From a virus: a stretch of DNA of 64,000 bases. Below, in pieces: positions 12,526 through 32,025 of the stretch; the first letter of the stretch is position 1, and the number at the start of each line of letters is the position of its first letter. The stretch spans positions 128,001 through 192,000 of the IMG/VR virus record IMGVR_UViG_3300045988_164340. The stretch is one strand, 5' to 3'. The position numbers and the translations under genes are program-made. Below the pieces are notes generated by a model. The model had not been told where the DNA came from. It did no database searches and saw nothing but the letters and a program-made list of their open reading frames with translations.

Positions 12526-12554
12526 TTGACAAAAATGAATTTGTGTGTTACAAT
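12526..12554 (+). promoter_or_regulatory. antisense-oriented sigmaA-type promoter (cassette A)
   Basis: TTGACA, 17 nt, TACAAT with TGt; flanking genes are all on the - strand. Confidence 0.7.
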
Positions 12555-12560
12555 ACACAC

Positions 12561-12801
12561 AGAGTTAAGAGACCCGTAACCTCTCAACTCTGTGTATTAT
12601 GTTTTAGTTTCCTTATAGCTCAAGGAAACCAGTTAACACTATTACATAGTAATAAATGTTAAATTTGTAGTTTATTTGTTTTATTTTCTACATGGTCTTT
12701 CATCTCCTTTCTTCCTTAAGACAAGGGTTTCATTTATATGAACAGTTTACGGGGCTGGAGTTTTAGATAGGAACAGGGTCACTCCTGTTCCTTTTCTTTT
12801 T
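12561..12801 (+). ncRNA. predicted ~240-nt antisense RNA A
   Basis: start inferred ~7 nt after -10; 5' stem-loop; ends at AGGAACAGG/CCTGTTCCT stem plus TTTTCTTTTT. Confidence 0.4.
12613..12693 (-). CDS. micro-ORF A: M(TAG)KIKQINYKFNIYYYVIVLTGFLEL
   Basis: AAAGGAG SD 10 nt upstream; second codon TAG; homologous to micro-ORF B1. Confidence 0.55.
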
Positions 12802-13255
12802 CTTCGTAAGGCTTAAGAGGAATATGATTGCAAGTGGAATATTCGCCTGTGTTAATATTCATCAAGAAATCTTGACCACTTTTGTAACAAAGAAACTTGA
12901 TTTCATCTCCAAAATCATCCACTTCATATACACTCTTATCTCCACAATAAGGACAGCGAGGCTCACGATACTGGCCAAAGCGAATATCTTTCTGATACTC
13001 TTCAGACTGAGGTTTACTCCAAACCTTGACAGAGAAAGTATTACCAGATTTATCATCAGGGTCAATCTCTGCCATGCAAATATCCTGTTCCACATCCTGT
13101 CCATCACGAACAAAGACAATGTTTACACCATGATACCCTTCTTCCTGTTCATAATAGATTCTGAACTGACCATTGGGAGTATCGACAGAGACGTAAGGAT
13201 AGGAATTATTCTTTGCAGAGTGGATAATCATTTCGTTAAAATTCTTGTTAGACAT
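12779..13255 (-). CDS. hypothetical protein with CxxC pair
   Basis: 158-aa ORF with SD; CPYCGDKS. Confidence 0.7.
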   Translation of the reverse strand: MSNKNFNEMIIHSAKNNSYPYVSVDTPNGQFRIYYEQEEGYHGVNIVFVRDGQDVEQDICMAEIDPDDKSGNTFSVKVWSKPQSEEYQKDIRFGQYREPRCPYCGDKSVYEVDDFGDEIKFLCYKSGQDFLMNINTGEYSTCNHIPLKPYEEKEKEQE

Positions 13256-13292
13256 AGTTTTCTTTCCTTTCTTAAATCAAAAATGTTTGTAG

Positions 13293-13835
13293 TTACCAGC
13301 CGTAAACATTGCGAACTTGCTTACCAATAGCGCGGGTATACTTGGTAATATCCTTGGAAGTTGCTTTACCACGATATAGCTTCCAACAGAACTTGTCAAG
13401 CTGGTCAGAAGAGATTTCAGGTTTCACCTCCCTATATAAAATATAATTAGTGCCATCATGGTGAGTTTGCTTAGAGCGAAGATTGTTATGAGAATCAACC
13501 CACCATTCTCCATAACCACAATCAGCATCAAACGAAAGACAAGCTCTGATATTCTTTTCATCTTTAAGCTTGTAGCCTGTTCTTCTACCGTTCCATAAAC
13601 CCAAATCAACGATGGCAATAATACGTCCTTCGGTGGGGATATTAAGATTAGCCTGTTCATCGTGAAAATATTCAGAGCTCAAAAGATACATTTCTTCAAT
13701 GTAATCATCTTCGGTTTTAGTGGAAGAGTCAATTTCATTCATCTCCCACATCTCTTCAATACCTTCACGCCAGTCTTCAAGATTGAGGTCGTAGTTGCTC
13801 CAAATGATGTGCTTGTTAGGGTTCTTCTTAGCCAT
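13293..13835 (-). CDS. hypothetical protein
   Basis: start moved to ATG 13835 (MAKKNPNKHIIW) with GAAAGGA SD. Confidence 0.7.
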   Translation of the reverse strand: MAKKNPNKHIIWSNYDLNLEDWREGIEEMWEMNEIDSSTKTEDDYIEEMYLLSSEYFHDEQANLNIPTEGRIIAIVDLGLWNGRRTGYKLKDEKNIRACLSFDADCGYGEWWVDSHNNLRSKQTHHDGTNYILYREVKPEISSDQLDKFCWKLYRGKATSKDITKYTRAIGKQVRNVYGW

Positions 13836-13881
13836 AATCACAATTCCTTTCTTTTTTGCTATAATTAGAATGCTTTGATAT

Positions 13882-13908
13882 AGAAAAAGCTGGGGATTAT
13901 TCCCCAGC
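13882..13908 (-). terminator. intrinsic terminator
   Basis: GCTGGGGA-ataa-TCCCCAGC then TTTTTC in - sense; overlaps the stop of 13897..14451. Confidence 0.6.
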
Positions 13909-14451
13909 AAATCCTTTGAAAGTTTCAACAATCTTGTTCTTTTCTTCAATGACCCTCTTAGTTGTACTTTTGATGCTGTAAATAAGATTATCCCTCAATG
14001 TAGAATAGATTCCATATTCATCCCATTTAGCAAGCCAACCATCTTTGTCTTTAAGCAGAGAATCAGGACAACACTCAGGAGAAGCATCAAGCACAACAGA
14101 ATCGCAAACATAATTACCATTTCTCCAAGTGATATAATAACGACTACCTTGTTTGTTAACTGCGATACTTTCATCATTACCATAATCTCTATAATAATGA
14201 GCATGAAGATTTGTTCTTGAAAAGAGATTAACTTCTTCAGCGATTTTCACCAAAGAAAGAATTTGGTTAACAATCACAGTCCACTTAGCTCTACCGATTG
14301 CTTCTGTACGAGGGATATAATATTCCTTTGTAGCTTCACAAAGAGTTTTGGCATTCTGATAACGCTGAAGAAGTTCCAGCATTTCGGTGTCTTCGTTTTC
14401 CTTGCAAGTAACGGTAACGGTCATGTTTTCATAAGTCTTAGTGTTAGTCAT
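13897..14451 (-). CDS. hypothetical protein
   Basis: 184-aa ORF with SD. Confidence 0.7.
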   Translation of the reverse strand: MTNTKTYENMTVTVTCKENEDTEMLELLQRYQNAKTLCEATKEYYIPRTEAIGRAKWTVIVNQILSLVKIAEEVNLFSRTNLHAHYYRDYGNDESIAVNKQGSRYYITWRNGNYVCDSVVLDASPECCPDSLLKDKDGWLAKWDEYGIYSTLRDNLIYSIKSTTKRVIEEKNKIVETFKGFAGE

Positions 14452-14519
14452 AATATAAACCTTTCTCCCCGTATAGCCGTTGGGACAGCTTAATTTTATT
14501 ATTTTCCTTAAAATAAAGA

Positions 14520-14720
14520 TTAACCGATGATAGAAAGAATTGTGTTATAGATATTTTCTGTGTCTAAATCAGAGTCGTTTGACGGATAAGCATTACAAAT
14601 AGCATCTTTTTCTGTAATAGTTAGCTCATCCCACTTCTTGTTGAAAGGATAGTTCAAAGAAGTTTCTTCTTCAAAAATCATATAATCTTTTACAGCTTGT
14701 TAAATTTCTTTTTTGTTCAT
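14520..14720 (-). CDS. small protein interrupted by an in-frame TAA at codon 7
   Basis: AAGGAG SD 8 nt before ATG 14720; MNKKEI-TAA(14700-14702)-QAVKDYMIFEEE...; ATG 14681 has no SD. Confidence 0.4.
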
Positions 14721-14786
14721 TTTTATATCTCCTTCAAGTTATTTGGTAAGGGTGGAAGATTTGCTTCCACCCATATACCTTAGATA

Positions 14787-16409
14787 TTAGTCACGAGGAG
14801 TAACACGAACTTTGAGCTTGTTTTTCTTGGCATACTCACAAATAGCTTTGTACTCATCCTCAGTGATACTACGGTTGGAAGCTCCTCTTGCCTGAACAAT
14901 AGCTTCGTTTTCAAGCTCAATAGTAACCAAAGGCTTATCAGTATCTTTTGTCTTACGAAGGAAAACAATCAGGCAATTTCTCTTGATTATTTTGCTCAGG
15001 TAACTGTACACACAATGATTCAACGCAGAACCTTCGTGCTTGACATCATCTGCATTCTTAGGACGAACAATACTGTATGTCTTATCCTCCGTGACAAAAG
15101 ACTTGAAATCTTTGTAAGCATTTTCAAACATCTCAGCCTGTTCCTCAGTAAGCTTAACTTCATAGTTGCGAGAAGTGATATCATGAGTCTGCTTAAGGTA
15201 AGAACTATAAAGAGTAGGCTTGATATCCATTGAAACGCACATATCAAGATAGTCACGAAGTTCACCCATAAACGAGTTTAAAGTTTTAAAGCCTTGATTG
15301 ACAGCCTCTTCACAAACATAATCCATAAACTTACCAAAAGTGTAGAACTGATAAAATTTGGAATTTCTATAATAATTATTATTCCTAAGATAAGCCTGTA
15401 AAGTGCTAGAAAAAACTTTCCCACCATATCCGCCAATTTCAACATGATTGAATTCAAATTCTTCATCCCAATACTTTGCTTTTTCAATAATGTCAAACCA
15501 TTCCTGATTGGTGTAATGACAGAAATCTTCTAAAGTCATGTTGCCATTATTACCGTAGTAGTAATTTTTACTATCCTCTTTAAAAGCGGAAGTGACAATG
15601 TTTTGTAAATTCATCCAATCATCAAGGATATTTCTATCATTAGCTTCTTTATACTCTGCTTTGGTAAGATGAATAAGTTTATAAACAGGTTCAGCGGTTT
15701 CAACTTTAAAACTAAGAAGAGCATTTTGAATGGATTTAGGAGCAGTGCGAAAGATGATTTCAGTGGATTTGTTTCTGCTTAATGCGAATCTCAATTCTCT
15801 GAAAGTATATTTAACCCCGATATTTTCGATAGGAATATCCCAGACTTGAGAGATAAAATCAATTGCGCTATCTCCCATTCCAGCTTCATAAACAGGGCCA
15901 TCACCATCACTGACTGGGGTAGCATTAGGCTCAAGGATAGGAATTAACTGTTCACCATTCATAATAAAGTTGCAACAGGCGTTATTGGTGGCAATTCTAT
16001 ATCTGTAATGACGAGATACAATAGCACCAAGAGGGAAACAATAACCAACATTGACCCAGAAATCACCGCCTTTCAAATTTACTTCCTTAATGATAAAAGT
16101 ATTAGGCGTAAGATAATCACGACTGGTAGGAGCACCAGTGAGCAAATCGAAATACAGCTCGACATCAGAACGGTTCGAACTATAGTGAACAATGATTTTC
16201 TTTCCATGAGAAGTAAAATCGCTGTTGTAACGATTGTTCTGAACCTTAGTCATTTCAACTCTTGCTTCTTTGAGTTGGTCAGAGAGATGTTTGATACGAG
16301 CATTGATTTCCTTTTCTTTAGCGGAGACTTCGTAGTTCTTAAAGAAGCTTTCATAATCATGAGTGGTAGACTTGTAGAAGTTAGCGATAGCAGTGTTAGA
16401 CATAATCAA
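14787..16409 (-). CDS. PcfJ-like protein
   Basis: 540 aa; C-terminal HEGSALNHCVYSYLSKIIKRNCLIVFLRK matches the PcfJ core and the paralog 21788..24115. Confidence 0.7.
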   Translation of the reverse strand: MIMSNTAIANFYKSTTHDYESFFKNYEVSAKEKEINARIKHLSDQLKEARVEMTKVQNNRYNSDFTSHGKKIIVHYSSNRSDVELYFDLLTGAPTSRDYLTPNTFIIKEVNLKGGDFWVNVGYCFPLGAIVSRHYRYRIATNNACCNFIMNGEQLIPILEPNATPVSDGDGPVYEAGMGDSAIDFISQVWDIPIENIGVKYTFRELRFALSRNKSTEIIFRTAPKSIQNALLSFKVETAEPVYKLIHLTKAEYKEANDRNILDDWMNLQNIVTSAFKEDSKNYYYGNNGNMTLEDFCHYTNQEWFDIIEKAKYWDEEFEFNHVEIGGYGGKVFSSTLQAYLRNNNYYRNSKFYQFYTFGKFMDYVCEEAVNQGFKTLNSFMGELRDYLDMCVSMDIKPTLYSSYLKQTHDITSRNYEVKLTEEQAEMFENAYKDFKSFVTEDKTYSIVRPKNADDVKHEGSALNHCVYSYLSKIIKRNCLIVFLRKTKDTDKPLVTIELENEAIVQARGASNRSITEDEYKAICEYAKKNKLKVRVTPRD

Positions 16410-16468
16410 TTTTCCTTTCTTAATTAGACGAAATGTTTGTAGTGACTATATATTAAAGGGAGGAGGGA

Positions 16469-17155
16469 TTAACCCTCCATCACCTTTTTACAGAAAGCTT
16501 TGTATTTCTGACTATTGAGTACACCAAGAATTTTTTCTTTAGCTTCGGGCTTACTCTTATAGTAGTCAGAGTAGTAGTCAGAGTTATAACCAAAATGTCT
16601 CTGATAAATGATATCAGGATTTTTCTTAAGCAACGCTTCAAGAGGACAATAAAGGCTTACAGTAACCTCTTCGCCCTTGTACTTGTAAGGCATCTTGATG
16701 TAGATATCGCAAGAGCCAGAACCACAAGTAGGAACATAAGCATCAAACTTATATTTTTTCAGATAAGGATAAGCCATGAGAATTGCTTCATTGAAAACTT
16801 TTCGAAGATAGACACTCTGATAATCACGAGAAACAATATACTGGTAAGCATCTTCGTAATGGTCTCTTTTCCAACCATTACGTTCTTTTGTGAATCTAAA
16901 ATTTCTCTTGATTTCAGGGAGACGTGTGTAATGGGCTTCATAGTAGCTAACACTATTTGTAGACACAGGAATATACTTGATACCACAGATATCTTTCATC
17001 TTGATTTTCTCATTTACAAGCCAAAGAAGGACATGAGTTGGGAAACACTTTTCCCACACATCCCATTCTTTGATGAACTTTTTAGCTCTTTCGTAGCCGA
17101 CAAATTTCTCGTTGAGATAAGTACCCTGATACTGAGCATAGATAGCCATAGTCAT
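16469..17155 (-). CDS. hypothetical protein
   Basis: 228-aa ORF with SD. Confidence 0.7.
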   Translation of the reverse strand: MTMAIYAQYQGTYLNEKFVGYERAKKFIKEWDVWEKCFPTHVLLWLVNEKIKMKDICGIKYIPVSTNSVSYYEAHYTRLPEIKRNFRFTKERNGWKRDHYEDAYQYIVSRDYQSVYLRKVFNEAILMAYPYLKKYKFDAYVPTCGSGSCDIYIKMPYKYKGEEVTVSLYCPLEALLKKNPDIIYQRHFGYNSDYYSDYYKSKPEAKEKILGVLNSQKYKAFCKKVMEG

Positions 17156-17215
17156 AATTCCTTTCTTTTCAATAGATGTGTTGTTGTTTATGTTGTTGTT
17201 TATATTTAAGTAGAG

Positions 17216-17464: not shown

Positions 17465-17477
17465 GTTATTCTCCTTT

Positions 17478-17675: not shown

Positions 17676-17689
17676 ATTTTTACCTCCTT

Positions 17690-17884: not shown

Positions 17885-17911
17885 ACTTAATCTCCTTTTG
17901 TTTTAATTTAA

Positions 17912-19832: not shown

Positions 19833-20843
19833 TTAAGCTGCAATGCGATTCCAAACAGAGTTCAGAATAGGCATGGTGTTAACTGCAACAGCCGTGAATG
19901 CTCCTGTGGTGGTAGACTTGGAAGATTTACGCATCTGAGTAGGATGACTTTCAAAGTCAGAGATAGCGTTCAAAGCCTTCCAAGCCGTGTCATTGAAGTT
20001 CTGAAGGTCATCCTGATTGTAAGCCGTCATAAGCTTTTCAATCATAGCCAGATTACGAATCTGGAGAATCTCAGAATCCTCAGTTTTGACAGGGAAGAGT
20101 TCACGAGCAAGAGCTTCGAATGCTTCCTTGGAGTAAGGAGTAACTGCAAGCTTTTCAGCTTCAACCTTAAGACGCTCAAGATAGTTGGTATTCTGAAGCA
20201 AGATAGTCTTAGCCTGTTCCAGCTTAGCCTGCATGGAATTGCTGTGACGAATACTGACACGATTCTCAGCTCCTCTGGTTGCACGAGCGATGCAATTGGA
20301 GCAGAAGATACGGATACTGATGAACATCGCCTGAATTGCCTTAGAACCATCATGGCTATTAAGGAACATCATGGTAGGCAAGAATTCATCATCCAGAATC
20401 TTCATAGGTTCGGTAGACATGGTGATGAAACTCTTAGCTCCATTAGGTCCATAGCTACCAGCAGTTTCAAATTTAGCACCTCCCAGAGCAAGAGAGTCAA
20501 GGAAGTCAAAAGCCTCACGATTCTGAAGAATGTTGTAATTCTTACCGACAATACCCAAAGGAGCATTAGTGTCAGTACGAATGGTTGCAAACTGGTCAGG
20601 GATGATAAAAGGAGTATCAACCAGAATCTTCTGACCATTCCATTCCTGCTCAACCTTATTTACGAACTGGACAGGACGCTTTTCAACGGAGTAATCCAGA
20701 CCACTGAGCTTGAGAGCGGATTCAAGAGAGTGGACATTCTCAAGAGTGATGCCCATATCTTCGTAGTACTTTTTACGAGGAGTATTCTCAACAGCTTCCA
20801 TAACAGCGTTGACTTTCTTAGTATCATAAGCAGCGATTCCCAT
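19833..20843 (-). CDS. DUF932 (phage/plasmid-like) protein
   Basis: 336 aa; ATIRTDTNAPLGIVGKNYNILQNREAFDFLD matches the DUF932/TIGR03299 core. Confidence 0.8.
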   Translation of the reverse strand: MGIAAYDTKKVNAVMEAVENTPRKKYYEDMGITLENVHSLESALKLSGLDYSVEKRPVQFVNKVEQEWNGQKILVDTPFIIPDQFATIRTDTNAPLGIVGKNYNILQNREAFDFLDSLALGGAKFETAGSYGPNGAKSFITMSTEPMKILDDEFLPTMMFLNSHDGSKAIQAMFISIRIFCSNCIARATRGAENRVSIRHSNSMQAKLEQAKTILLQNTNYLERLKVEAEKLAVTPYSKEAFEALARELFPVKTEDSEILQIRNLAMIEKLMTAYNQDDLQNFNDTAWKALNAISDFESHPTQMRKSSKSTTTGAFTAVAVNTMPILNSVWNRIAA

Positions 20844-20920: not shown

Positions 20921-20949
20921 ATTATAAATCTCAAATCCGCAAATGTCAA
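20921..20949 (-). promoter_or_regulatory. sigmaA-type promoter for the DUF932 gene
   Basis: - sense TTGACA (20949-20944), 17 nt, TATAAT (20926-20921); TTTAAATAC upstream. Confidence 0.6.
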
Positions 20950-21169: not shown

Positions 21170-21198
21170 TTGACAAGATTTATGTTGTGTATTAATAT
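21170..21198 (+). promoter_or_regulatory. antisense-oriented sigmaA-type promoter (cassette B)
   Basis: TTGACA, 17 nt, TAATAT. Confidence 0.65.
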
Positions 21199-21267
21199 AT
21201 GTATAGATGATAAGAAGAATCCTATACTTCTTACTTACCATCTATACATCTTCGTAATTAACGGCTA

Positions 21268-21339
21268 TTAATTACGGTTATAGATTATCATAATCTACGA
21301 GAGATTATAATAGTAACTTACAAAGAAGATTCTCTACAT
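21268..21339 (-). CDS. micro-ORF B2: M(TAG)RIFFVSYYYNLS(TAG)IMIIYNRN
   Basis: AAAGGAG SD 9 nt upstream; C-terminus IIYNRN shared with C and D. Confidence 0.5.
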
Positions 21340-21458
21340 GGCTTTCAACTCCTTTCCTCCTTAGACAAGGGGCAATTATATAACAGTTTATAGGAACTGG
21401 TTATATCGAGCTAAAGAGAATTGCCTATACAATCCTCTTTAGGAATTAATTTAAGTTA

Positions 21459-21539
21459 TTAAAGTTCGTACATCCGGCCAAGAATGATAGAACAATAATA
21501 AACATTAAACTAATAGTTTATTTGTTTGATTGTCTACAT
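21459..21539 (-). CDS. micro-ORF B1: M(TAG)TIKQINY(TAG)FNVYYCSIILGRMYEL
   Basis: AAAGGAG SD 7 nt upstream; aligns with micro-ORF A. Confidence 0.55.
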
Positions 21540-21615
21540 AGACATTCTCCTTTCCATTTAGCGTTAATATATAAACAGTTTATAGGAACTGAATATATCA
21601 AAATAGAGCAGGATT

Positions 21616-21795
21616 TTATTCCTGCTCTTTTTGTATTGTGTACAAATACTGCTTTCGCTTTTCTTTGTACTGTTTGTTAATTTTGTACCGATAACTGCCA
21701 TGAGTCTTACGCTGAATTCCTTCACAGCGGTCATAGTACATACCATCGTACTGGGGATACTCTGTGATAGCATTGTTAGGTGTACGTTTAGACAT
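21616..21795 (-). CDS. small basic protein
   Basis: start moved to ATG 21795 overlapping the upstream stop (ATGTCTAA); MSKRTPNNAITEYPQYDG... Confidence 0.5.
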   Translation of the reverse strand: MSKRTPNNAITEYPQYDGMYYDRCEGIQRKTHGSYRYKINKQYKEKRKQYLYTIQKEQE

Positions 21796-24115
21796 AACTT
21801 TTACCCTCCAAACCATATTCTTTAGCATCAAGTTTACTGCTACTTGCGCTATAACCTTGACCTTTGTTGAGCACAATGTTTACAGGACATTTAATTCCCT
21901 TTTCATGAATCCAGTTAATTACAAACTTAACTGCATCAGGTTCATTTCCAAGCCAACGGTTGTAAAGGCCGTGAATTTGAATGATTTCATTGTGGTTGTT
22001 AACCTCAATCGTGAAGAAAGGAATATCAATTTCTTCATTCTTTCTTAAGAACAGAATGTTTGTTCTACCTTCTGCAACACGACTGATATAACCACCAACA
22101 CAATGATGAAGATATACACCTTCCTTTGTAATCTTGTTCATCTCTTTAGGAACAACAATGGAGAAATTATCATCGGCATACTCAAATTTTTCTTTGCGTT
22201 GGTCATAAAGTTTAGCTGCTAACTTGTTTAATCTTTCCTGCTCTTCTTTGTTTCTTGCTTCTTTGTCTGTAATGTTGATTTCAATCAGCATGTTATGATA
22301 ACGATGAAGCTCATTCACATCTTTACATGTGTATAAATCAATATCAGGACGGTTGGTGTTTGAGATTTGTTTGAACAAATTTAAGGTATCAGAAAAGATT
22401 TTAAATACATCCTCGTCAAGACCTTTCTTATCAGTTTTTTCTTGAAGACGTATAAGCTTGAGAAGATTCTTTCTATCCTTTTCATTTTGTTCAGGAGTTA
22501 ATGGTTTAATTCTTCTTTCTTTGTTCATACAACGCCAACCATTCTTAATTCTATAATAAGTGTACACACTGTTGTTTGCTTCAACAAAATGCAAAAACTC
22601 ACGATAGTCAGAACGAACATTATTCATTCTTTTTGCCATGCTAAAGTAAAAGTCGGAATCTTTGTCAGTAATAGAAGAAAGATTTTTAACGCCAGCAACA
22701 AATTGAACGGTTTCAATTACACATCGAGGAGTATAGGTCAGACCGCCGTAAATATAAGTCGGACTATTAGGGTTCTTTTTCTTTTCCTCAAACATCTTAT
22801 CTACTAATTTAAGCTGGTACTTATTCATGCCACTAAGCTCGTAAATGCTTGCAGATTTGGAATACTTTTTATATCCAAAAAGATGTTCAACATCAGATTT
22901 TGCAGATACACTCATGAGATAATTGGCGATGTATTTATATCCAGCTTTATAAAATTGTTCGATAGTAGGACATCTAAGAGTGTAAATAATCCTAAGAATT
23001 AAGGAATTTGTTTTAGTCATAATGTCACTATCATTGATGATAGAAGAGATATAAAACAATCTCTTAAACTTAAACATATCCTCAAAACCTCTGAAGAAAC
23101 AGACGTTATCAGCAGGAATTCCAATATCAGAAGAACTGGACACTCTAAATACAACATTTCCATTAAGAATTGTATTGGGTTTGAAGATTGTTACTTTTCC
23201 TTTGTTATCAATAAGAATACGTGACTGTTCTTCAAACTCGAAATACCCACCGAACTGACGAATGACACAATAATTATCATTTAAGATATTAAATGTCCAA
23301 ATTATATCTTTGTATTCAGTGTGATATTCATTGTTCCAAGAGTTCTTAACATCAATGGCTTTCTTGGGATATAACTGACGAAGCTCATTTAAATTAACAG
23401 TTGGCAAGCTATTAACGATTTCAGAAATATCCGCTGAAGATTTAGAACTGGTACGAGGATACATTACTTTATAGTAATCAGCAAATGTGTAAGGAGTCCA
23501 TTGCGTCCACTTGATTCTTGGATTACATCCTTTTCTAGTAAATTCTTCAATTGCTTGAGAAAAGTAGAAATGGAAAACAGCCTTGTACAAATCATGCTGG
23601 AGAAAATTAACAAATCCTAAACTATAGAACTTGCCTCCTTTAGATTTAAACGCAATGTCTCCATTGACATCAAATGGAGCAGGGCAGTTTCTGAAAAGGA
23701 AATAACGCTCCATAAAATAGTAGTTTCTTTTCTCTTCAGGAATCTTTCTGGTGTTGATTGTCATTATTCCAAATACAAGCATTTCAAATTCAGGGTAATA
23801 TTTGGCATAAGCAACTTTTGCATTTTTACCAGAACCAACAACGATTGTGTGAGATTGAATATTACTCACATTGAAATGGTCAGCTACCTTTTTACGATAC
23901 TGCGCAATAGTATCGTTAGGTTGAATAATTTCATACTCACCTCTCAGCAAGTGGAAAGCTTTACCATTTGCTTTCTGTTGCCAATATACAGTGATATCAG
24001 GGCAACTATTAGGATTGGGATTAATACTCTCTTTAGTTGAGAGGAACTTTTTCACAGTAGCTCTGTTCTTTTCAATGACTTCGTTAGGAATGTTATCAAT
24101 ATAAGTGGTGTTCAT
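21788..24115 (-). CDS. large PcfJ-like protein
   Basis: 775 aa; KEGVYLHHCVGGYISRVAEGRTNILFLRK core near the C-terminus. Confidence 0.75.
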   Translation of the reverse strand: MNTTYIDNIPNEVIEKNRATVKKFLSTKESINPNPNSCPDITVYWQQKANGKAFHLLRGEYEIIQPNDTIAQYRKKVADHFNVSNIQSHTIVVGSGKNAKVAYAKYYPEFEMLVFGIMTINTRKIPEEKRNYYFMERYFLFRNCPAPFDVNGDIAFKSKGGKFYSLGFVNFLQHDLYKAVFHFYFSQAIEEFTRKGCNPRIKWTQWTPYTFADYYKVMYPRTSSKSSADISEIVNSLPTVNLNELRQLYPKKAIDVKNSWNNEYHTEYKDIIWTFNILNDNYCVIRQFGGYFEFEEQSRILIDNKGKVTIFKPNTILNGNVVFRVSSSSDIGIPADNVCFFRGFEDMFKFKRLFYISSIINDSDIMTKTNSLILRIIYTLRCPTIEQFYKAGYKYIANYLMSVSAKSDVEHLFGYKKYSKSASIYELSGMNKYQLKLVDKMFEEKKKNPNSPTYIYGGLTYTPRCVIETVQFVAGVKNLSSITDKDSDFYFSMAKRMNNVRSDYREFLHFVEANNSVYTYYRIKNGWRCMNKERRIKPLTPEQNEKDRKNLLKLIRLQEKTDKKGLDEDVFKIFSDTLNLFKQISNTNRPDIDLYTCKDVNELHRYHNMLIEINITDKEARNKEEQERLNKLAAKLYDQRKEKFEYADDNFSIVVPKEMNKITKEGVYLHHCVGGYISRVAEGRTNILFLRKNEEIDIPFFTIEVNNHNEIIQIHGLYNRWLGNEPDAVKFVINWIHEKGIKCPVNIVLNKGQGYSASSSKLDAKEYGLEGKSYV

Positions 24116-26006: not shown

Positions 26007-26165
26007 TTAAAAATCCTCCTCTTCCTGAGCAACATCAGCTTCAAAGTCATCAGACCAAGTAATATCTTCTTTGCCATAGTCCTTGACCTTAGCAAGAGCC
26101 TCAGATTCAGAATTAGCTTCAACTTCAACGGAGCCATAACGAATGAACAGAACATTGTATTTCAT
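26007..26165 (-). CDS. small acidic 52-aa protein
   Basis: MKYNVLFIRYGSVEVEANSE...QEEEDF; SD GAAAGGAAAG. Confidence 0.5.
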   Translation of the reverse strand: MKYNVLFIRYGSVEVEANSESEALAKVKDYGKEDITWSDDFEADVAQEEEDF

Positions 26166-26223
26166 ATTATACTTTCCTTTCTTAATGGTGTCAAGTATTT
26201 AAAAAGAAATTTTTACAAACTAC

Positions 26224-26252
26224 TTGACAAGTGTTATCATTTGTGTTATATT
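26224..26252 (+). promoter_or_regulatory. antisense-oriented sigmaA-type promoter (cassette C)
   Basis: TTGACA, 17 nt, TATATT with TGt. Confidence 0.7.
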
Positions 26253-26258
26253 ACACTC

Positions 26259-26489
26259 ATCAAGCAAAGTAGCCTGTAACTTTTACTTGATGAGTGTTGT
26301 TGATTATCATCTTTGGTTAGTTACGATGATAAATGATACGAATAATTGAGATTTGTCTATCCATATCAACATGTAAAATTTTCTACATATTAATTTCTCC
26401 TTTCGTGAGTAGTTATGTAAACAGACTTTACAGGAGTCTGGAGTCTTAAGTAAGACTGGTAGTTGGTAGCTACCAGTCTTTTCTCTTTT
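26259..26489 (+). ncRNA. predicted ~230-nt antisense RNA C
   Basis: 12-bp 5' stem-loop; ends at AAGACTGGTA/TACCAGTCTT plus TTCTCTTTT. Confidence 0.4.
26317..26388 (-). CDS. micro-ORF C: M(TAG)KILHVDMDRQISIIRIIYHRN
   Basis: AAAGGAG SD 8 nt upstream. Confidence 0.5.
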
Positions 26490-27420: not shown

Positions 27421-27465
27421 AATTCTAAATTCCTTTCATAACTCAAAAAAGTTTGTAATTATTAC

Positions 27466-27494
27466 TTGACAGATATTATCAAGTGTGCTAAGAT
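27466..27494 (+). promoter_or_regulatory. antisense-oriented sigmaA-type promoter (cassette D)
   Basis: TTGACA, 17 nt, TAAGAT. Confidence 0.6.
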
Positions 27495-27545
27495 AAACAC
27501 AAGTAGAAAGCCTACACTCTCTACTTGTGACGCAATTAAGTGGGA

Positions 27546-27617
27546 TTAATTACGATTGTAAATGATAAAGACTATTATTATGGACCAATAATAGTCAACT
27601 GCTAAGATTTTCTACAT
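27546..27617 (-). CDS. micro-ORF D: M(TAG)KILAVDYYWSIIIVFIIYNRN
   Basis: AAAGGAG SD 7 nt upstream. Confidence 0.5.
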
Positions 27618-27744
27618 AGCAAAGCTCCTTTCTAATTTAATAATACATTAATTCATTGTAGGCTGAATTAATGTGCGAGTGAATAAGTTGGGCTTAAACA
27701 CTCTATTGAGGGATGGAAGTTATTTTCCATCCCTCTAACAATGT

Positions 27745-27939
27745 TTAAACTTTTTCAACTTTGTATGGCCTGCAAGTAACAATATCGAAATTGTTTACAA
27801 GCCATTCAGGTTTGGTTTTTTTAGTATTGAGGAATTTGCAAACAATGTTTGCAAGCACTTCACTGTTAAATACAGTTTTTTCCTTCATACTCATTGTGAC
27901 TGTTACGGATTTTCCGTATTTGTTTACAATCTTAAACAT
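27745..27939 (-). CDS. hypothetical 64-aa protein
   Basis: start moved to ATG 27939 overlapping the upstream stop (ATGTTTAA). Confidence 0.55.
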   Translation of the reverse strand: MFKIVNKYGKSVTVTMSMKEKTVFNSEVLANIVCKFLNTKKTKPEWLVNNFDIVTCRPYKVEKV

Positions 27940-28246
27940 GCCACACCTCCGTTTTAACACCTTTGCCATTGTAATAACGACGAGCACCATAATTGGCTCT
28001 ATCACTAAAACATTCAGCACAAGGAATTAATTCCTTACGCTTTCCCTCTTTGATTTCCTTGAGTGAAAGGTTGAAGCACTGCTCAACCTCGCATTTTTCA
28101 CACGTCTTACAGGATTTACCCTTGCAGATATTTTCGCAGAAGTTGTTTTTAACTTTGCAGAGATGCTTAACACCCCAAGAGGAATTCATCTCAGCTAAAG
28201 TCTGGTCGAGAGTGTAATTACGACCCATAACACTAATCTTTTTCAT
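27932..28246 (-). CDS. Cys-rich protein
   Basis: 104 aa; CKVKNNFCENICKGKSCKTCEKCEVEQC. Confidence 0.65.
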   Translation of the reverse strand: MKKISVMGRNYTLDQTLAEMNSSWGVKHLCKVKNNFCENICKGKSCKTCEKCEVEQCFNLSLKEIKEGKRKELIPCAECFSDRANYGARRYYNGKGVKTEVWHV

Positions 28247-28309
28247 TTTACTTTGACTCCTTTCAAGTCTGTATTAAATTTGATTTTGAATTTGTCTTAA
28301 ACTATATGG

Positions 28310-28642
28310 TTAAAAACAAACACGTTTCTTTTTGATTTTGGTAAGCATCCAACACCAAGGATTTCCAAAATCATCTTCAAGAGGAGTAACCTTAATGGTT
28401 ACAAGCACCTCAGTACTGAGATGTTCAAGCACATATTCGAGATTTTTAAGAGAGAAAACATATCTCTCTTTTGTATCATCTTTGGTACTTTTTGCGCACC
28501 ATTTGATGATTTCTTTCAAACTTGAATCAATCAAGCAGTTCAAATTCCCATACGTATCAAGCGCTCTACTAAGAGAAGGCGCTTCTAAATAAGTAGGGTT
28601 GTTTGTAATGGAGCGAATATTGTTTTTCATTTTCTTAGACAT
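28310..28642 (-). CDS. hypothetical protein, paralog of 6896..7216
   Basis: 110 aa; see 6896..7216. Confidence 0.65.
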   Translation of the reverse strand: MSKKMKNNIRSITNNPTYLEAPSLSRALDTYGNLNCLIDSSLKEIIKWCAKSTKDDTKERYVFSLKNLEYVLEHLSTEVLVTIKVTPLEDDFGNPWCWMLTKIKKKRVCF

Positions 28643-28679
28643 GACTTTAATTCCTTTCTTTTGTCAAATTGATTAATAC

Positions 28680-28871
28680 TTATACTTGCTTGAGATATTT
28701 AAGGTTTAACTCTAATTTGGAATCCATGATTAAACCCTTTTCTCTTTTGATGCGACCTCTGAGATTATTCAGCGCTTGTTTCTCAGAAGAGGCCATTGTG
28801 TAACCAGAATAATGACAATAATAGTCATGCCATCTGGTTACTGGGCCCTCATAATAATATTTGAGCTTCAT
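28680..28871 (-). CDS. hypothetical protein
   Basis: 63-aa ORF with GGAGG SD. Confidence 0.6.
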   Translation of the reverse strand: MKLKYYYEGPVTRWHDYYCHYSGYTMASSEKQALNNLRGRIKREKGLIMDSKLELNLKYLKQV

Positions 28872-28888
28872 ATATACCTCCTTTCAAC

Positions 28889-29134
28889 TCAAATAAACTC
28901 TGAGACTTTACCCTCTTCATGGACATAGCCTCCAAGAACTTCAGGACATGACTGGAAATAACCAGACGCATCCTGAATGTGTACGAGAATGGTATCATCC
29001 ATATTCAATGAGCCATTTCGTACTTTCATTCTGAGAGAATTGCGAATTCGTTTCCAAATTTCGCTTCTTTCTTCGAATACATCATAGATGACTTTGCCAT
29101 CTTTTTTGATGTATCCTTTGTACCATCTTGTCAT
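28889..29134 (-). CDS. hypothetical protein
   Basis: 81-aa ORF, ATGA overlap with upstream gene. Confidence 0.6.
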   Translation of the reverse strand: MTRWYKGYIKKDGKVIYDVFEERSEIWKRIRNSLRMKVRNGSLNMDDTILVHIQDASGYFQSCPEVLGGYVHEEGKVSEFI

Positions 29135-29595
29135 TTGTTTTCACCCCCTTTCTCATGATTCAGGGCAGCTCTTCTTAATTCATCCTGAGAATTATAATAC
29201 TGCTCAAAAGCATCACAACCTTCCCAAGAAATTTTAGATTGAAGCTTTGCAAGCTTTTCAGAGACTTCTGCCAAGTTTTTTTGTGCCTCTTCAAGAGCAG
29301 ATTCCTGTAATGCAATATATGTATCCATTGCAACATTCTTTGCCATAAGAATGGCAGTGAATTCATCTTTGAAGTAACCTTCATAATGTTGAGGCATAAT
29401 ATGTGTTTTCATTTCATTAAAGGTGCTTTCGCGGATGAATTGTTCTCTCAATTCGCCTGAAGCTAGAAAATATACAGGATTTTCATTAGTATTATGAATA
29501 TTCTGAATTTTGTACACTACCATGGTGTTCATGGTAGTAGGCTGACGGTAAATCACGGTATATACATACCCATCTAACGTTGTAATCTTTTTCAT
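29131..29595 (-). CDS. hypothetical protein
   Basis: start moved to ATG 29595 (MKKITTLDGYVY) with GAAAGGAAAAAAG SD. Confidence 0.65.
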   Translation of the reverse strand: MKKITTLDGYVYTVIYRQPTTMNTMVVYKIQNIHNTNENPVYFLASGELREQFIRESTFNEMKTHIMPQHYEGYFKDEFTAILMAKNVAMDTYIALQESALEEAQKNLAEVSEKLAKLQSKISWEGCDAFEQYYNSQDELRRAALNHEKGGENK

Positions 29596-29623
29596 TTCTT
29601 TTTTCCTTTCTGCTCTTTTGAGC

Positions 29624-29652
29624 TTGACAAATCTTTGTTTGTGTGTTATACT
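29624..29652 (+). promoter_or_regulatory. antisense-oriented sigmaA-type promoter (cassette E)
   Basis: TTGACA, 17 nt, TATACT with TGt. Confidence 0.7.
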
Positions 29653-29705
29653 TGCTATTGTAATAAGAAAAGTGGTTGACCAATCCACTCTTCTTATTAA
29701 ATTGA

Positions 29706-29861
29706 TTAGTCTAAGTCTAACTTAGATATATCTATCTGGAAGAATTCAATCAGCTATTCAACACTTAGGTGTTGCATATACCAATTAAACTCAAATTCAG
29801 AAGTGATATACTACTTCAGAATAGAACCAATCTTTGCTTTATTACTAAAACTATCCTACAT
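29706..29861 (-). CDS. micro-ORF E (51 aa, three TAG codons): M(TAG)DSFSNKAKIGSILK(TAG)YITSEFEFNWYMQHLSVE(TAG)LIEFFQIDISKLDLD
   Basis: AAAGGAGG SD 5 nt upstream; GTTTTAGTAATAAAGCA shared with cassette H. Confidence 0.4.
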
Positions 29862-30003
29862 GAATTCCTCCTTTCTTTTAACTTGTTAGTGCTGGTGACT
29901 AACTTGTTATTCATTATCTTATTGGTCAGATAAGATAGAGAGCTTATTCCCATTAAGCACTCTATGAAGGGTAGGAGCATATGTTCCTGCCCTTTAACAA
30001 TGC

Positions 30004-30339
30004 TTAACCGATGTAACGTTCCTTGAGAGAACGTGCTTCCATAATGAAAGATTCAAAATCTTCGTTGGAAGTAATTTGTATTCTTTTTTCTTTGATTGGT
30101 CTAGCTATCATATTAAGTTTAGATAGTGTGTATTCACAATACAACTTTATATAATAAGTTGTGTTGTTTTCATTTAACACTCTATCAGGAGAGACATATA
30201 CGTGAAGCCAATAATCTTTCCCAAAGTGTGACTGAGCAAATGCTCCTCTATCTTCCCACTGAGCGAATACTTCAGTATCTTCCCAAGGTTTTGCAATACC
30301 AACTAACATATTGCAGATATCATGGACGGCTAATTTCAT
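30004..30339 (-). CDS. hypothetical protein
   Basis: 111-aa ORF with SD. Confidence 0.65.
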   Translation of the reverse strand: MKLAVHDICNMLVGIAKPWEDTEVFAQWEDRGAFAQSHFGKDYWLHVYVSPDRVLNENNTTYYIKLYCEYTLSKLNMIARPIKEKRIQITSNEDFESFIMEARSLKERYIG

Positions 30340-30366
30340 TTTCTTTGATTCCTTTCTATTAAACCA

Positions 30367-30395
30367 TTGACAAGTACAACTTTATATGTTATACT
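30367..30395 (+). promoter_or_regulatory. antisense-oriented sigmaA-type promoter (cassette F)
   Basis: TTGACA, 17 nt, TATACT with TGt. Confidence 0.7.
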
Positions 30396-30454
30396 TATTA
30401 TTAGAATAAGAGAAGTGCCTACACACCTCTCTTATTAATGAGCTTTTATTCTTC

Positions 30455-30529
30455 TTAGAAGTTATAGTTCTTTAGAATTACAACTACAACGACGTTTAAA
30501 GAATAATCGACTGAAATAATCTTCTTCAT
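30455..30529 (-). CDS. micro-ORF F: MKKIISVDYSLNVVVVVILKNYNF
   Basis: AAGGAGG SD 9 nt upstream; second codon AAG where G1/G2 have TAG. Confidence 0.55.
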   Translation of the reverse strand: MKKIISVDYSLNVVVVVILKNYNF

Positions 30530-30660
30530 TATTTATTACCTCCTTAAGAAGATAAAAGCAAACAAGAATGTAGGTCCTTATTTACTACAGAGGAGAGATA
30601 GGGGGATATCTCTCCTTCTGTTATGTTTGAGTAGTTTAACGACTTGCTCAGGTCGAGGAG

Positions 30661-31062
30661 TTAGTTCTGATAATCGTCACTTACCAGAACCCATTCTTCT
30701 CCATTACCATCAATGAGATGAATTGTTGTTCCATCTTCACCGATAGTAACTGACTGAAGATTACTAAACCAATTTTCAGTAGTGGTATAGGCTTCTTCAG
30801 TGCCTTTGTCGTAACCAGCGTTGTATGCGCCAGTTACGTCTTCATTAGTGCAGACCTCTGCGGGAGTGCTCTTACTGTAATCAATGTTACAGATAAGAGT
30901 AATGATGCTAATGGCAAGAATAGTCATGATAATGAACATGGCACGAGGATTCATGCTCTTCTTATGCACGATTGCTTCGATATTAATGATAACACCGTAT
31001 ACAATCATGATAATCATGATAGCCACGGCAATGATAACAATAGAATTCATGGTAATAAACAT
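30661..31062 (-). CDS. membrane protein
   Basis: 133 aa; two N-terminal TM helices. Confidence 0.65.
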   Translation of the reverse strand: MFITMNSIVIIAVAIMIIMIVYGVIINIEAIVHKKSMNPRAMFIIMTILAISIITLICNIDYSKSTPAEVCTNEDVTGAYNAGYDKGTEEAYTTTENWFSNLQSVTIGEDGTTIHLIDGNGEEWVLVSDDYQN

Positions 31063-31095
31063 CTTTATTTCCTTTCTGGTTTTAGTGTCTTTTCC

Positions 31096-31124
31096 TTGAC
31101 AATAGTTGTTTGGTGTGTTATAAT
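31096..31124 (+). promoter_or_regulatory. antisense-oriented sigmaA-type promoter (cassette G)
   Basis: TTGACA, 17 nt, TATAAT with TGt (full consensus). Confidence 0.75.
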
Positions 31125-31183
31125 GTTTTTAATAAGAGAAGCACCTATATACTTCTCTTATCTGTGTATCTTATTACACTTTA

Positions 31184-31258
31184 TTAGAAGTTGTAATTCT
31201 TAAGGATGATTACTACAACCACATTAAAAGTGTAATTGACAAATGTTATCTTCTACAT
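31184..31258 (-). CDS. micro-ORF G1: M(TAG)KITFVNYTFNVVVVIILKNYNF
   Basis: AAAGGAGG SD 8 nt upstream; codon-by-codon check done. Confidence 0.6.
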
Positions 31259-31395
31259 TTATTTACCTCCTTTAGAAGATAGAAGTATTTAATTGTATAG
31301 GCAACTAAATACTGAGAGCTTATTGCGACTAAGCACTCTATAAGATAGAGGAAGATATTTCTACCTTCCTCTATCCTAACAATGCTCAGTTATGC

Positions 31396-31470
31396 TCAGA
31401 AGTTATAATTCTTCAGTATCGCAACTGTTACAACATTAAGAGCATAATTTACGGAAATTATTTTCTACAT
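31396..31470 (-). CDS. micro-ORF G2: M(TAG)KIISVNYALNVVTVAILKNYNF
   Basis: AAAGGAGG SD 9 nt upstream; TGA stop. Confidence 0.6.
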
Positions 31471-31614
31471 GGTAATTTCCTCCTTTCCGAGTGCGATTTG
31501 GATTACTAAGCACTCTATTAAGCCCAGTATCAACTCCTTTTGGGGCGGATATTGGGCTTTAACAATGCTTAGGTATTGAGCAGTTTATTGTCATACTCAG
31601 GACAAAAGAGTGGA

Positions 31615-31956
31615 TTAGTTCTTAATCATCCACCCTTCACAACCGTATTTCTCATGGACAATCTTTCTGTTCCAGCAGTAATTTGTGCTGCCACCATCAG
31701 ACTGAGGAAAAGTGATACAAGTTTTCTGCATTAAAGTAAGAATGCCCTTCCATGCATCTTCGGTTTCTTCATTGAAAATCTCATTGAAAACGGTTTCCAG
31801 TGCTCTCCACTGGAGGAAAATTGCTCCCTGATAGCGGAAACGGTCGTAGACCTTTACAAAGGTCTCCGTGAAGGACGGGGTATTGAAGCTGTCTACTAAC
31901 TTGTCCAACCATTTATTGTTGTTGCTGATAGTAATGTTGATGTTGTTGATATACAT
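31615..31956 (-). CDS. hypothetical protein
   Basis: start moved to ATG 31956 (MYINNINITIS) with AAAGGAG SD. Confidence 0.65.
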   Translation of the reverse strand: MYINNINITISNNNKWLDKLVDSFNTPSFTETFVKVYDRFRYQGAIFLQWRALETVFNEIFNEETEDAWKGILTLMQKTCITFPQSDGGSTNYCWNRKIVHEKYGCEGWMIKN

Positions 31957-31996
31957 AGCTTTGACTCCTTTTTGTTCCTTTCTTTTAGAAAATCTG

Positions 31997-32025
31997 TTGA
32001 CAAATATAACTTTATATGTTATACT
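31997..32025 (+). promoter_or_regulatory. antisense-oriented sigmaA-type promoter (cassette H)
   Basis: TTGACA, 17 nt, TATACT with TGt. Confidence 0.7.

Follow-up and report, generated by a model that had tools for sequence, protein, structure and literature searches.

Predicted antisense RNA genes facing ATG-TAG micro-ORFs in a phage with late-gene TAG recoding

Small antisense RNAs that silence a gene on the opposite strand have been described in several settings. In the type I toxin-antitoxin repeats Ibs/Sib and Ldr/Rdl of E. coli, a very small ORF faces a strong opposite promoter, whose RNA of roughly 140-250 nt is fully complementary to the ORF and its SD. In hok/sok of plasmid R1, a strong constitutive antisense promoter is combined with a structured mRNA whose 5' and 3' parts can pair. 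Phages also use short cis-antisense RNAs, such as P22 sar and lambda OOP, transcribed from promoters that point against an operon. A different kind of control has been proposed for stop-codon-recoded (code 15) phages, in which in-frame TAG occurs in late and lysis genes but not in early genes and may act as a translational lock on late functions (Borges et al., preprint 10.1101/2021.08.26.457843; phAss-1, PMC10607447). Finally, SPbeta carries a repeated regulatory element, the SPBRE/MrpR operator, at its early promoters (PMC10516654).

Here we analyzed a 64,000-nt stretch of a viral genome (IMG/VR record IMGVR_UViG_3300045988_164340, positions 128,001 to 192,000; hereafter the window). An earlier note had pointed out eight near-consensus sigmaA promoters on the + strand of a block of minus-strand genes, and proposed that they produce cis-antisense regulators of micro-ORF mRNAs in a type I toxin-antitoxin layout and/or act as roadblocks to read-through. 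The eight promoter-like sites were confirmed, whereas the proposed interpretation is only partly supported. Together with the coding features described below, they point to a previously undescribed timing lock.

Eight promoter sites against the direction of the genes

All eight sites were found on the + strand with the -10 boxes given in the note:

12526-12554, + strand: antisense promoter 1 (TTGACA-17-TGn-TACAAT), predicted start about 12561
21170-21198, + strand: antisense promoter 2 (TAATAT; no TGn here, present in orthologues), predicted start about 21205; its predicted RNA spans two micro-ORFs
26224-26252, + strand: antisense promoter 3 (TGn-TATATT), predicted start about 26259
27466-27494, + strand: antisense promoter 4 (TGn-TAAGAT), predicted start about 27501
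29624-29652, + strand: antisense promoter 5 (TGn-TATACT), facing a 51-aa ATG-TAG ORF
30367-30395, + strand: antisense promoter 6 (TGn-TATACT)
31096-31124, + strand: antisense promoter 7 (12/12 consensus plus TGn); its predicted RNA spans two micro-ORFs
31997-32025, + strand: antisense promoter 8 (TGn-TATACT)

The window contains 19 TTGACA-N17-TAnnnT sites, against 1.40 +/- 1.26 in shuffled sequences (largest 5). Between 12 and 32 kb, eight of them are on the + strand and three on the minus strand. The note counted six sites with an extended -10, but seven of the eight carry TGn, since 31997 has it too and only 21170 lacks it. All long ORFs from 6.1 to 38.3 kb are on the minus strand, every site lies in an intergenic gap of 220-550 nt, and the -35 box starts 28-59 nt from the ATG of the next minus-strand gene. 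As the note had observed, a hairpin, here of 10-14 bp, starts within a few nt of each predicted start.

The predicted transcripts are about 225-460 nt long. They contain no + strand ORF with an SD, even when TAG is read as sense, no tRNA, and no Rfam family at gathering score. The four + oriented terminators described in the note are real, two further cassettes have compound or moderate ones, and two are weak (near 29964-29996 and 31518-31560), so that four of the eight are non-canonical:

12769-12801, + strand: canonical intrinsic terminator (T) of + RNA 1 (about 240 nt)
21605-21632, + strand: bidirectional terminator (T), end of + RNA 2 (about 430 nt)
26452-26489, + strand: canonical terminator (T) of + RNA 3 (about 230 nt)
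27686-27755, + strand: compound hairpin (T; conserved CACTCTAT...TAACAATG internal loop) followed by TTTTT, probable end of + RNA 4 (about 255 nt)
30590-30626, + strand: hairpin (T) plus a moderately T-rich tail, probable end of + RNA 6 (about 225 nt)
32225-32264, + strand: canonical terminator (T) of + RNA 8 (about 230 nt)

Absence or lack of conservation of the promoters in related genomes had been named beforehand as a finding that would speak against them. Instead, antisense-oriented hits occur in all 8 related IMG/VR loci. Of 47 unique cassettes found through the micro-ORF alone, 39 have an exact antisense promoter 47-77 nt after the ORF stop; among the rest are the upstream members of tandem pairs, and in the loci L124, a distant relative, and L091 the promoter lies further downstream. 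The -35 box, the -10 box and the 17-nt spacing are invariant while the spacer varies, apart from positions 19-22, which read T(G/A)TG. Promoter and H2 (a hairpin described below) are 89-99% identical across relatives, compared with 82-92% for flanking genes and 80-86% for the micro-ORF body. Most relatives are close, so much of this evidence rests on paralogues.

The same arrangement raises the possibility that the promoter-terminator pairs are transcriptional insulators, acting through open complexes and head-on collisions that would attenuate or delay host-polymerase read-through from one early gene into the next, with the RNA as a by-product. Each promoter fires head-on into incoming transcription just upstream of the next gene. 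Long read-through operons are likely, because few co-directional consensus promoters exist in the block (13399, 20949, 26194, 34185, 38374), and the T hairpins lack a U-run on the sense strand. However, this idea explains neither why every promoter faces an ATG-TAG ORF, nor why one promoter serves two ORFs in tandem gaps, nor the complementary hairpin loops and precisely placed + terminators. We consider it unlikely as the main function, although it may operate alongside an RNA mechanism.

A conserved ATG-TAG cassette on the sense strand

The note missed the context in which these promoters occur. The phage has a YonO-type RNA polymerase and reads TAG as an amino acid only in its late genes: with TAG as sense, ORF coverage of 40-56 kb rises from 0.73-0.80 to 0.96-0.97, and Pfam GIY-YIG and PG_binding_1 domains span in-frame TAGs. 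No suppressor tRNA was found in the window or in the related loci examined. Each promoter faces a conserved minus-strand cassette consisting of a T hairpin, an H1 hairpin, a strong SD, an ORF starting ATG-TAG, and an H2 hairpin. The ORFs are as follows (q = TAG):

12613-12693, - strand: micro-ORF MqKIKQINYKFNIYYYVIVLTGFLEL, with strong SD
21459-21539, - strand: micro-ORF MqTIKQINYqFNVYYCSIILGRMYEL, upstream member of a tandem pair
21268-21339, - strand: micro-ORF MqRIFFVSYYYNLSqIMIIYNRN
26317-26388, - strand: micro-ORF MqKILHVDMDRQISIIRIIYHRN, not hydrophobic
27546-27617, - strand: micro-ORF MqKILAVDYYWSIIIVFIIYNRN
29706-29861, - strand: 51-aa hydrophilic ORF starting ATG-TAG, with three in-frame TAG and the same cassette architecture
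30455-30529, - strand: micro-ORF MKKIISVDYSLNVVVVVILKNYNF, in which codon 2 is AAG, not TAG
31184-31258, - strand: micro-ORF MqKITFVNYTFNVVVVIILKNYNF
31396-31470, - strand: micro-ORF MqKIISVNYALNVVTVAILKNYNF, upstream member of a tandem pair
32089-32161, - strand: degenerate micro-ORF copy with a 2-nt deletion relative to the MKTIIEVNYFLCV... copies of relatives; the TTG frame gives MIEVNYFLCVIVVLVIKHHNV

The micro-ORFs form a real coding family of 23-26 aa. Differences at codon positions 1/2/3 are 1084/548/1668 and 1911/1452/2718, with the second position least variable, and CAA and TAG interchange at internal positions. Codon 2 is TAG in 34 of 43 unique copies, AAG in 9, and never CAA or CAG.

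The hairpins on either side of the ORFs were located as follows:

12555-12597, - strand: H2 of cassette 1, abutting the -10 box
21199-21249, - strand: H2 of cassette 2
26253-26297, - strand: H2 of cassette 3
27498-27529, - strand: H2 of cassette 4 (14 bp on the sense strand)
29661-29699, - strand: H2 of cassette 5 (loop holds TTGGTCA)
30405-30436, - strand: H2 of cassette 6
31131-31162, - strand: H2 of cassette 7
32033-32066, - strand: H2 of cassette 8
12743-12757, - strand: H1 (loop CCCGTAA), complementary to the H2 loop of the same cassette; coordinates read from the sequence
21384-21399, - strand: H1 (loop CCTATA)
21576-21591, - strand: H1 (loop CCTATA) of the upstream tandem unit
26422-26440, - strand: H1 (loop CCTGTAA)
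27645-27674, - strand: H1 (loop GCCTACAA), overlapping a sense TTCACT-17-TACAAT promoter-like site
29915-29937, - strand: H1 of cassette 5 (loop CTGACCAA, complementary to TTGGTCA in H2)
30557-30586, - strand: H1 (loop CCTACA; 3 G.U pairs on the sense strand)
31284-31313, - strand: H1 (loop CCTATA)
32188-32217, - strand: H1 (loop CCTATA)

H2 corresponds to the stem-loop that the note had placed at the 5' end of the antisense RNA. It covaries, with 90.5% of cells paired against 74.5% in shuffles (0 of 500 reach it) and double changes in 12 of 14 pairs. However, it is more stable and selected mainly on the sense RNA (49 against 7 G.U pairs; 90.5% against 78.0% paired), so part of what looked like antisense-RNA anatomy belongs to the mRNA. 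The loops of H1 and H2 are complementary and co-vary (CCTACA, CCTATA, CCTGTAA, CCCGTAA, TGACCAA, CCGTG).

The position of the cassettes also suggests that the ATG-TAG ORFs could be leader-peptide sensors of the code switch, in which start-stop translation early and full translation late would alter RNA structure or stability and tune the downstream gene, leaving the antisense RNA as an accessory. In agreement with this, the cassettes sit immediately upstream of a gene with its own SD, TAG itself is selected at codon 2, the stop codon lies in a small hairpin and about 15-20 nt before H2, and the architecture is kept with an unrelated 51-aa ORF. On the other hand, folding with the 5' arm of H2 removed gave no consistent sequestration of the downstream SD, and upstream members of tandem pairs are followed by another cassette, not by a gene. 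Purifying selection on the peptide sequence further suggests that the product matters. This reading therefore remains doubtful.

A possible timing lock

At the sequence level, the sites look like genuine sigmaA promoters of discrete, non-coding, cis-antisense transcripts that cover a small ORF and its SD. The explanation we favor, although hardly more likely than not, is that they are working host promoters of the Firmicute TRTG extended -10 type driving eight antisense RNA genes. In this view, each RNA starts at the foot of H2, runs back across one or two small ORFs and their SDs, and stops at T at the 3' end of the preceding minus-strand gene. Early in infection, abundant antisense RNA made by the host polymerase would pair with the ORF region, block ribosome entry and probably direct duplex cleavage, while the release factor of the cell would read ATG-TAG as start-stop. 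Late, phage amber suppression would make TAG readable and host-driven antisense synthesis may fade, so that the stable sense RNA, bracketed by hairpins, would be translated into 23-26 aa peptides with a possibly membrane-active or toxic function. The analysis demonstrates the anatomy of promoters, terminators and hairpins, their conservation, the coding signature and the recoding of TAG, whereas transcription itself, including the starts, ends and abundance of either RNA, as well as RNA pairing, timing, any roadblock effect, and the activity or toxicity of the peptides are inferred. Sense promoters are weak or unclear, and the sense RNA may be only operon read-through.

The layout resembles a type I toxin-antitoxin locus, but membership in these systems is not established. 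Classical modules serving element maintenance or defence, each a killer peptide with an unstable RNA antidote and no role in the timing of the phage, would fit the small ORF with its convergent strong promoter in multiple diverged copies and the hydrophobic core of most copies. SPbeta, too, is reported to carry the toxin gene spbT (yonT), silenced through host RNase III (PMC10516654). Type I modules of SPbeta include bsrG/SR4 and yonT/SR6. Nevertheless, we found no homology to any known toxin or antitoxin family, the hydrophobic cores are only about 11 residues long, one paralogue is not hydrophobic, and one cassette carries the hydrophilic 51-aa ORF. Moreover, with TAG at codon 2 a standard-code host cannot translate the toxin once the element is lost, which defeats post-segregational killing, and no prophage relative was found among GTDB species representatives. 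We thus consider this reading improbable. Even less likely are trans-acting small RNAs: every + RNA contains one or two CTCCTTTC or CCTCCTT tracts, and such CUCCUUUC-type tracts could pair with SDs of other phage or host mRNAs, but they are an automatic consequence of being antisense to a strong SD, and no independent conservation or target evidence was obtained.

Comparison with described systems

The window shows the pattern of in-frame TAG proposed as a lock in the code 15 phages. Here, however, TAG is fixed at codon 2 of tiny ORFs inside the early region, and term searches found no mention of antisense in either of the two papers cited above, and none of promoter or small ORF in the phAss-1 paper. 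SPbeta likewise combines a repeated element in intergenic regions of its early block with a YonO-type polymerase. SPBRE sits at the promoters of the genes it controls, which as far as is known point the same way as their genes, while the promoters described here point the opposite way. In the early region of the Spbetavirus BUCT082 no TTGACA-17-TAnnnT site was found on either strand.

P22 sar and lambda OOP share short RNAs that end at intrinsic terminators and are complementary to an intercistronic region or ribosome-binding site. Those are single loci in immunity regions, whereas here eight copies are distributed along 20 kb, each aimed at its own small ORF rather than at the ribosome-binding site of the neighbouring large gene. 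With hok/sok, the cassettes share the strong antisense promoter, and the complementary H1 and H2 loops suggest a stable, silent mRNA pool released when the antisense disappears. The inferred pairing is loop to loop between two hairpins, there is no mok-like coupling ORF, a stop-codon lock is added, and the setting is lytic-cycle timing instead of plasmid loss. Similarly, Ibs/Sib and Ldr/Rdl occur in several diverged copies of comparable layout. Compared with these repeats, the present cassettes show no sequence homology, their peptides are less hydrophobic, they lie between genes of a phage early operon, and their ORFs start ATG-TAG and would need amber suppression.

Promoters opposed to the early genes

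A pattern search for TTGACA-N17-TAnnnT recovered all eight + strand sites listed in an earlier note, at the same coordinates and with the same -10 boxes, so the observation made there holds. The window contains 19 such sites, whereas dinucleotide-preserving shuffles gave 1.40 +/- 1.26 with a maximum of 5. All eight score 10-12 of 12 against the consensus of a Firmicute sigmaA promoter with an exact 17-nt spacer. Every long ORF between about 6.1 and 38.3 kb lies on the minus strand, and the eight sites fall in gaps of 220-550 nt between those genes, each with its -35 box starting 28-59 nt from the ATG of the next minus-strand gene and pointing away from it. One detail needs correcting, since the note counted six sites with the TGn extension and we find seven; site 31997 has it, and only site 21170 lacks it, while its orthologues have it. 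The four + oriented terminators named in the note are real and canonical, two further cassettes have compound or moderate ones, and two have only weak ones. The geometry fits an alternative in which the sites act through polymerase collision or insulation, although this would not explain the small ORFs that they face, the sharing of one promoter by tandem units, or the loop complementarity described below.

Chance promoter words are rejected by the shuffles and by conservation across related sequences and among paralogues. Eight related IMG/VR loci were brought in through the neighboring ParB-like gene (94-98% amino-acid identity), and antisense-oriented hits occur in every one of them. In addition, 47 unique cassettes were found through the small ORF alone, without reference to the promoter, and 39 of these have an exact TTGACA-17-TAnnnT on the opposite strand 47-77 nt past the ORF stop. 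Among the exceptions are the upstream members of tandem pairs, which share the downstream promoter, and in two loci, L091 and the more distant L124, the promoter lies further along. Across paralogues the hexamers and their spacing are fixed while the spacer varies, and positions 19-22 read T(G/A)TG, the Firmicute -16 motif TRTG, in 26 unique promoters. Across relatives the promoter together with the adjoining hairpin (H2, see below) is 89-99% identical, compared to 82-92% for flanking genes and 80-86% for the body of the small ORF.

The predicted + transcripts appear to be non-coding. They hold no ORF of 10 or more codons with an SD, even with TAG read as sense, and no tRNA or Rfam family was found in them or in any cassette. 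At a relaxed E-value the only notable Rfam hit was a partial match outside the cassettes, which hints at a host related to clostridia. Two 12/12 consensus promoters also occur on the minus strand of this block, and one of them overlaps a coding start such that a transcript from it would begin inside that ORF.

32682-32748 (-): partial match (40.5 bits, E 1e-5, below the gathering score of 128) to Rfam RF03533, the Clostridioides difficile sRNA SQ1002 of unknown function
26166-26194 (-): 12/12 consensus promoter, back to back with the third of the eight antisense promoters; its spacer and -10 box overlap the SD and abut the ATG of the 52-aa ORF at 26007-26165
20921-20949 (-): 12/12 consensus promoter

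A phage that reads TAG as sense in its late genes

A megablast search against 50,697 deposited phage records returned no hit, and a search of GTDB genomes for a prophage or host found no relative of the ParB-like gene. The ORF at 39917-42559 identifies a YonO-type single-chain RNA polymerase, as it is about 40% identical to a protein of the Spbetavirus BUCT082 and also matches genes annotated as yonO or as RNA-dependent RNA polymerase in Clostridium (c-st), Enterocloster and Bacillus phages. A Pfam search of the small peptides and flanking genes gave nothing informative, with only DUF6551 and DUF932 returned.

39917-42559 (+): 880-aa YonO-type RNA polymerase, diverging from the minus-strand early block
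42537-63531 (+): late genes with many in-frame TAG codons, e.g. 45520-46293, 46567-48210, 48210-50396 and 50673-51386
32705-34129 (-): Cys-rich ORF of about 460-470 codons with 5 in-frame TAG, inside the AT-rich island of 32-38 kb (GC about 0.27)
14787-16409 (-) and 21788-24115 (-): two paralogous PcfJ-like proteins (PHROG 3169/8470)
19833-20843 (-): DUF932 protein

The late genes on the + strand read TAG as a sense codon. With TAG as sense, stop-to-stop ORF coverage of 40-56 kb rises from 0.73-0.80 to 0.96-0.97. When TAG is translated as Gln, Pfam finds a GIY-YIG endonuclease (5 TAG), a CHAP plus PG_binding_1 lysin (4 TAG) and an ORF with a LAGLIDADG/Hom_end domain (7 TAG). In-frame TAGs lie within the matched domains, at positions 50, 81 and 91 of GIY-YIG (aa 6-94) and at 222 and 238 of PG_binding_1 (aa 196-247). 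Standard code-11 gene calling fragments this region. In contrast, early minus-strand genes have essentially no in-frame TAG. This is the pattern reported for code-15 phages (10.1101/2021.08.26.457843; PMC10607447). No tRNA was found in the 64-kb window and no suppressor tRNA(CUA) in 43 related loci, a search that did not extend to the rest of the genome and therefore does not show absence.

The Cys-rich ORF at 32705-34129 lies downstream of a consensus minus-strand promoter (34185-34157), so it would be transcribed early but be translatable only after TAG suppression. Its C-terminus looks HNH-like by eye, although Pfam gave no hit. The PcfJ-like and DUF932 families of the early block are more usual on conjugative elements and large Bacillus phages.

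Small ORFs starting ATG-TAG and their hairpins

On the minus strand the gaps carry a strong SD followed by ATG TAG, and read with TAG as sense these are small ORFs. Nine belong to one family of 23-26 aa peptides. A tenth, in the eighth gap, is a degenerate member of the same family that lacks the ATG-TAG start, and one further ORF, in cassette 5, is a 51-aa hydrophilic protein with three TAGs. A simple fixed-spacing search did not recover the repeat because its spacing varies, but a pattern scan brought in further contigs, and these carry the same ORFs, as do the eight related loci. The SD-ATGTAGAAAAT pattern also hit a recurrent 35-codon frame (MqKIRYLQLDLIHRVVLFYHS...YRNQN, q being TAG) in many unrelated IMG/VR contigs from other samples (L019, L020, L026, L027, L030 and many others) with no antisense promoter, which is probably a conserved stretch of another phage group read in an arbitrary frame.

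32089-32161 (-): degenerate family member of the eighth gap
32084-32161 (-): this copy has a 2-nt deletion relative to the MKTIIEVNYFLCV... copies in relatives; it is either decaying or uses a TTG start
27686-27755, 29955-30000, 31335-31385 and 31513-31575: type B T elements

The ORFs show a coding signature. Pairwise differences at codon positions 1/2/3 are 1084/548/1668 in the 24-codon class and 1911/1452/2718 in the 23-codon class, and CAA and TAG interchange at internal positions. Codon 2 is different, as among 43 unique copies it is TAG in 34 and AAG in 9, and never CAA or CAG. The stop codon itself, not glutamine, is being kept at that position. This fixed TAG and the intercistronic position would also fit a leader peptide that senses the code switch. 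However, a folding test of the corresponding attenuator model, in which the freed 3' arm of H2 sequesters the SD of the next gene, gave no consistent signal.

In sense orientation each unit consists of T, a hairpin whose U-run is on the + strand, followed by a hairpin H1, a strong SD, the ATG-TAG ORF, a hairpin H2, the complement of the antisense promoter, and the SD and start of the next gene. The T elements of type B share a conserved two-tier structure with an outer stem (AAGCA/TGCTT), an internal loop with fixed words (sense strand CATTGTTA ... ATAGAGTG) and a variable inner hairpin. These conserved loop words suggest a bound factor or a processing site, not just a terminator.

H2 is the stem-loop that the note placed at the 5' end of the + RNA. 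It does form there, but it is better on the sense RNA, being more stable on that strand in 59 of 62 unique sequences (means of -22.1 and -17.3 kcal/mol), while the regional background asymmetry is only -1.2 kcal/mol. On an alignment of 24 sequences the 14-bp helix is 90.5% paired, against 74.5% in shuffles (0 of 500 reach it); 12 of the 14 pairs show changes on both sides, and slid registers give about 50%. Similarly, there are 49 G.U cells on the sense strand and 7 on the antisense strand, with 90.5% and 78.0% pairing, respectively.

H1 carries in its loop the complement of the H2 loop, and the two co-vary from cassette to cassette. The motifs are CCTACA, CCTATA, CCTGTAA and CCCGTAA, whereas cassette 5 has an unrelated pair, TGACCAA with TTGGTCA, and L124 has CCGTG with CACGG. 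Complementarity within a cassette exceeds that of permuted partners (7.34 against 6.57 +/- 0.15, with 0 of 200 permutations reaching it). We also considered the loop motif (CCTAYA) as a late promoter of the phage polymerase, the YonO promoter being unknown in the literature. Strong hairpins with these loops occur only in the cassettes and not in the late region, which speaks against this idea.

Inferred mechanism and relation to known systems

The sequence analysis establishes promoters of the Firmicute sigmaA type facing ATG-TAG ORFs, + oriented terminators (canonical in four cassettes) that would confine the predicted transcripts, a structured and conserved sense RNA, and TAG recoding restricted to late genes. 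What we infer from this, including transcription itself, is that the host polymerase makes antisense RNA from the start of infection, that this RNA pairs across the SD and the ORF, and that the cell meanwhile terminates at codon 2. When amber suppression appears, and possibly as host transcription fades, the hairpin-bracketed mRNA would be translated. Two independent locks on the same tiny ORFs suggest that the products are harmful if made early, which is the logic of hok/sok or Ibs/Sib applied to lytic timing. We consider this overall reading about as likely as not; we are more confident that the promoters fire and make antisense RNA, and less confident that the peptides are toxins. Trans-acting anti-SD RNAs, another possibility, have no independent support.

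A bolder view, which we regard as possible but rather unlikely, is that the cassettes are a timer built on genetic-code reassignment. ORFs beginning ATG-TAG would be silent start-stop sites in a standard-code cell and become translatable only when the phage switches on amber suppression, while strong antisense RNAs from the host polymerase, together with a kissing pair of 5' and 3' hairpins, would hold the mRNA inert until then. It would be a hok/sok-like delayed-release circuit wired to a codon switch, and no other regulatory RNA module coupled to stop-codon recoding is known to us.

Stop-codon recoding in phages has been proposed as a lock on late genes, but in the papers examined no dedicated regulatory element has been tied to it. 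Term searches of two papers on recoded phages found no mention of 'antisense' in either (10.1101/2021.08.26.457843; PMC10607447), and none of 'promoter' or 'small ORF' in the phAss-1 paper (PMC10607447). Here, a repeated and conserved cassette combines a stop codon fixed at codon 2, a strong predicted antisense RNA of the host polymerase, and covarying hairpins with complementary loops. If the model holds, it offers a directly testable system for how a phage times the switch between two genetic codes, and it would reveal a new family of 23-26 aa late peptides. Moreover, standard gene callers and code-11 annotation miss these ORFs entirely, so similar modules may be hidden in other recoded phages.

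The earlier note interpreted the loci as cis-antisense regulators in the layout of type I toxin-antitoxin systems, and this is only partly supported. At sequence level, a promoter and a terminator bracket the ORF and its SD on the opposite strand, as expected for a cis-encoded antisense RNA gene overlapping a toxin mRNA. However, membership is not established, as there is no homology to a described toxin or antitoxin family (the peptides have no Pfam hit and the cassettes no Rfam hit), and any toxicity remains conjectural. Hydrophobicity is only partial: the peptides of 23-26 aa have a hydrophobic core of about 11 residues and uncharged runs of 11-18, the copy at 26388 has a GRAVY of -0.2, and cassette 5 encodes the hydrophilic 51-aa ORF. 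A classical addiction role is further undermined because a standard-code host could not translate an ATG-TAG toxin after losing the element.

Among repeated phage elements, the SPBRE/MrpR element of SPbeta (PMC10516654) is a different thing. It sits at promoters that point the same way as the genes they control, whereas the promoters here point against the genes, and the early region of BUCT082 has no comparable sites, so the feature is not shared with this SPbeta-like phage. In contrast, the layout works like a fully overlapping type I toxin-antitoxin pair and like the phage antisense RNAs sar and OOP. Cis-antisense control of this sort is already known, and what differs here is its inferred coupling to stop-codon recoding.
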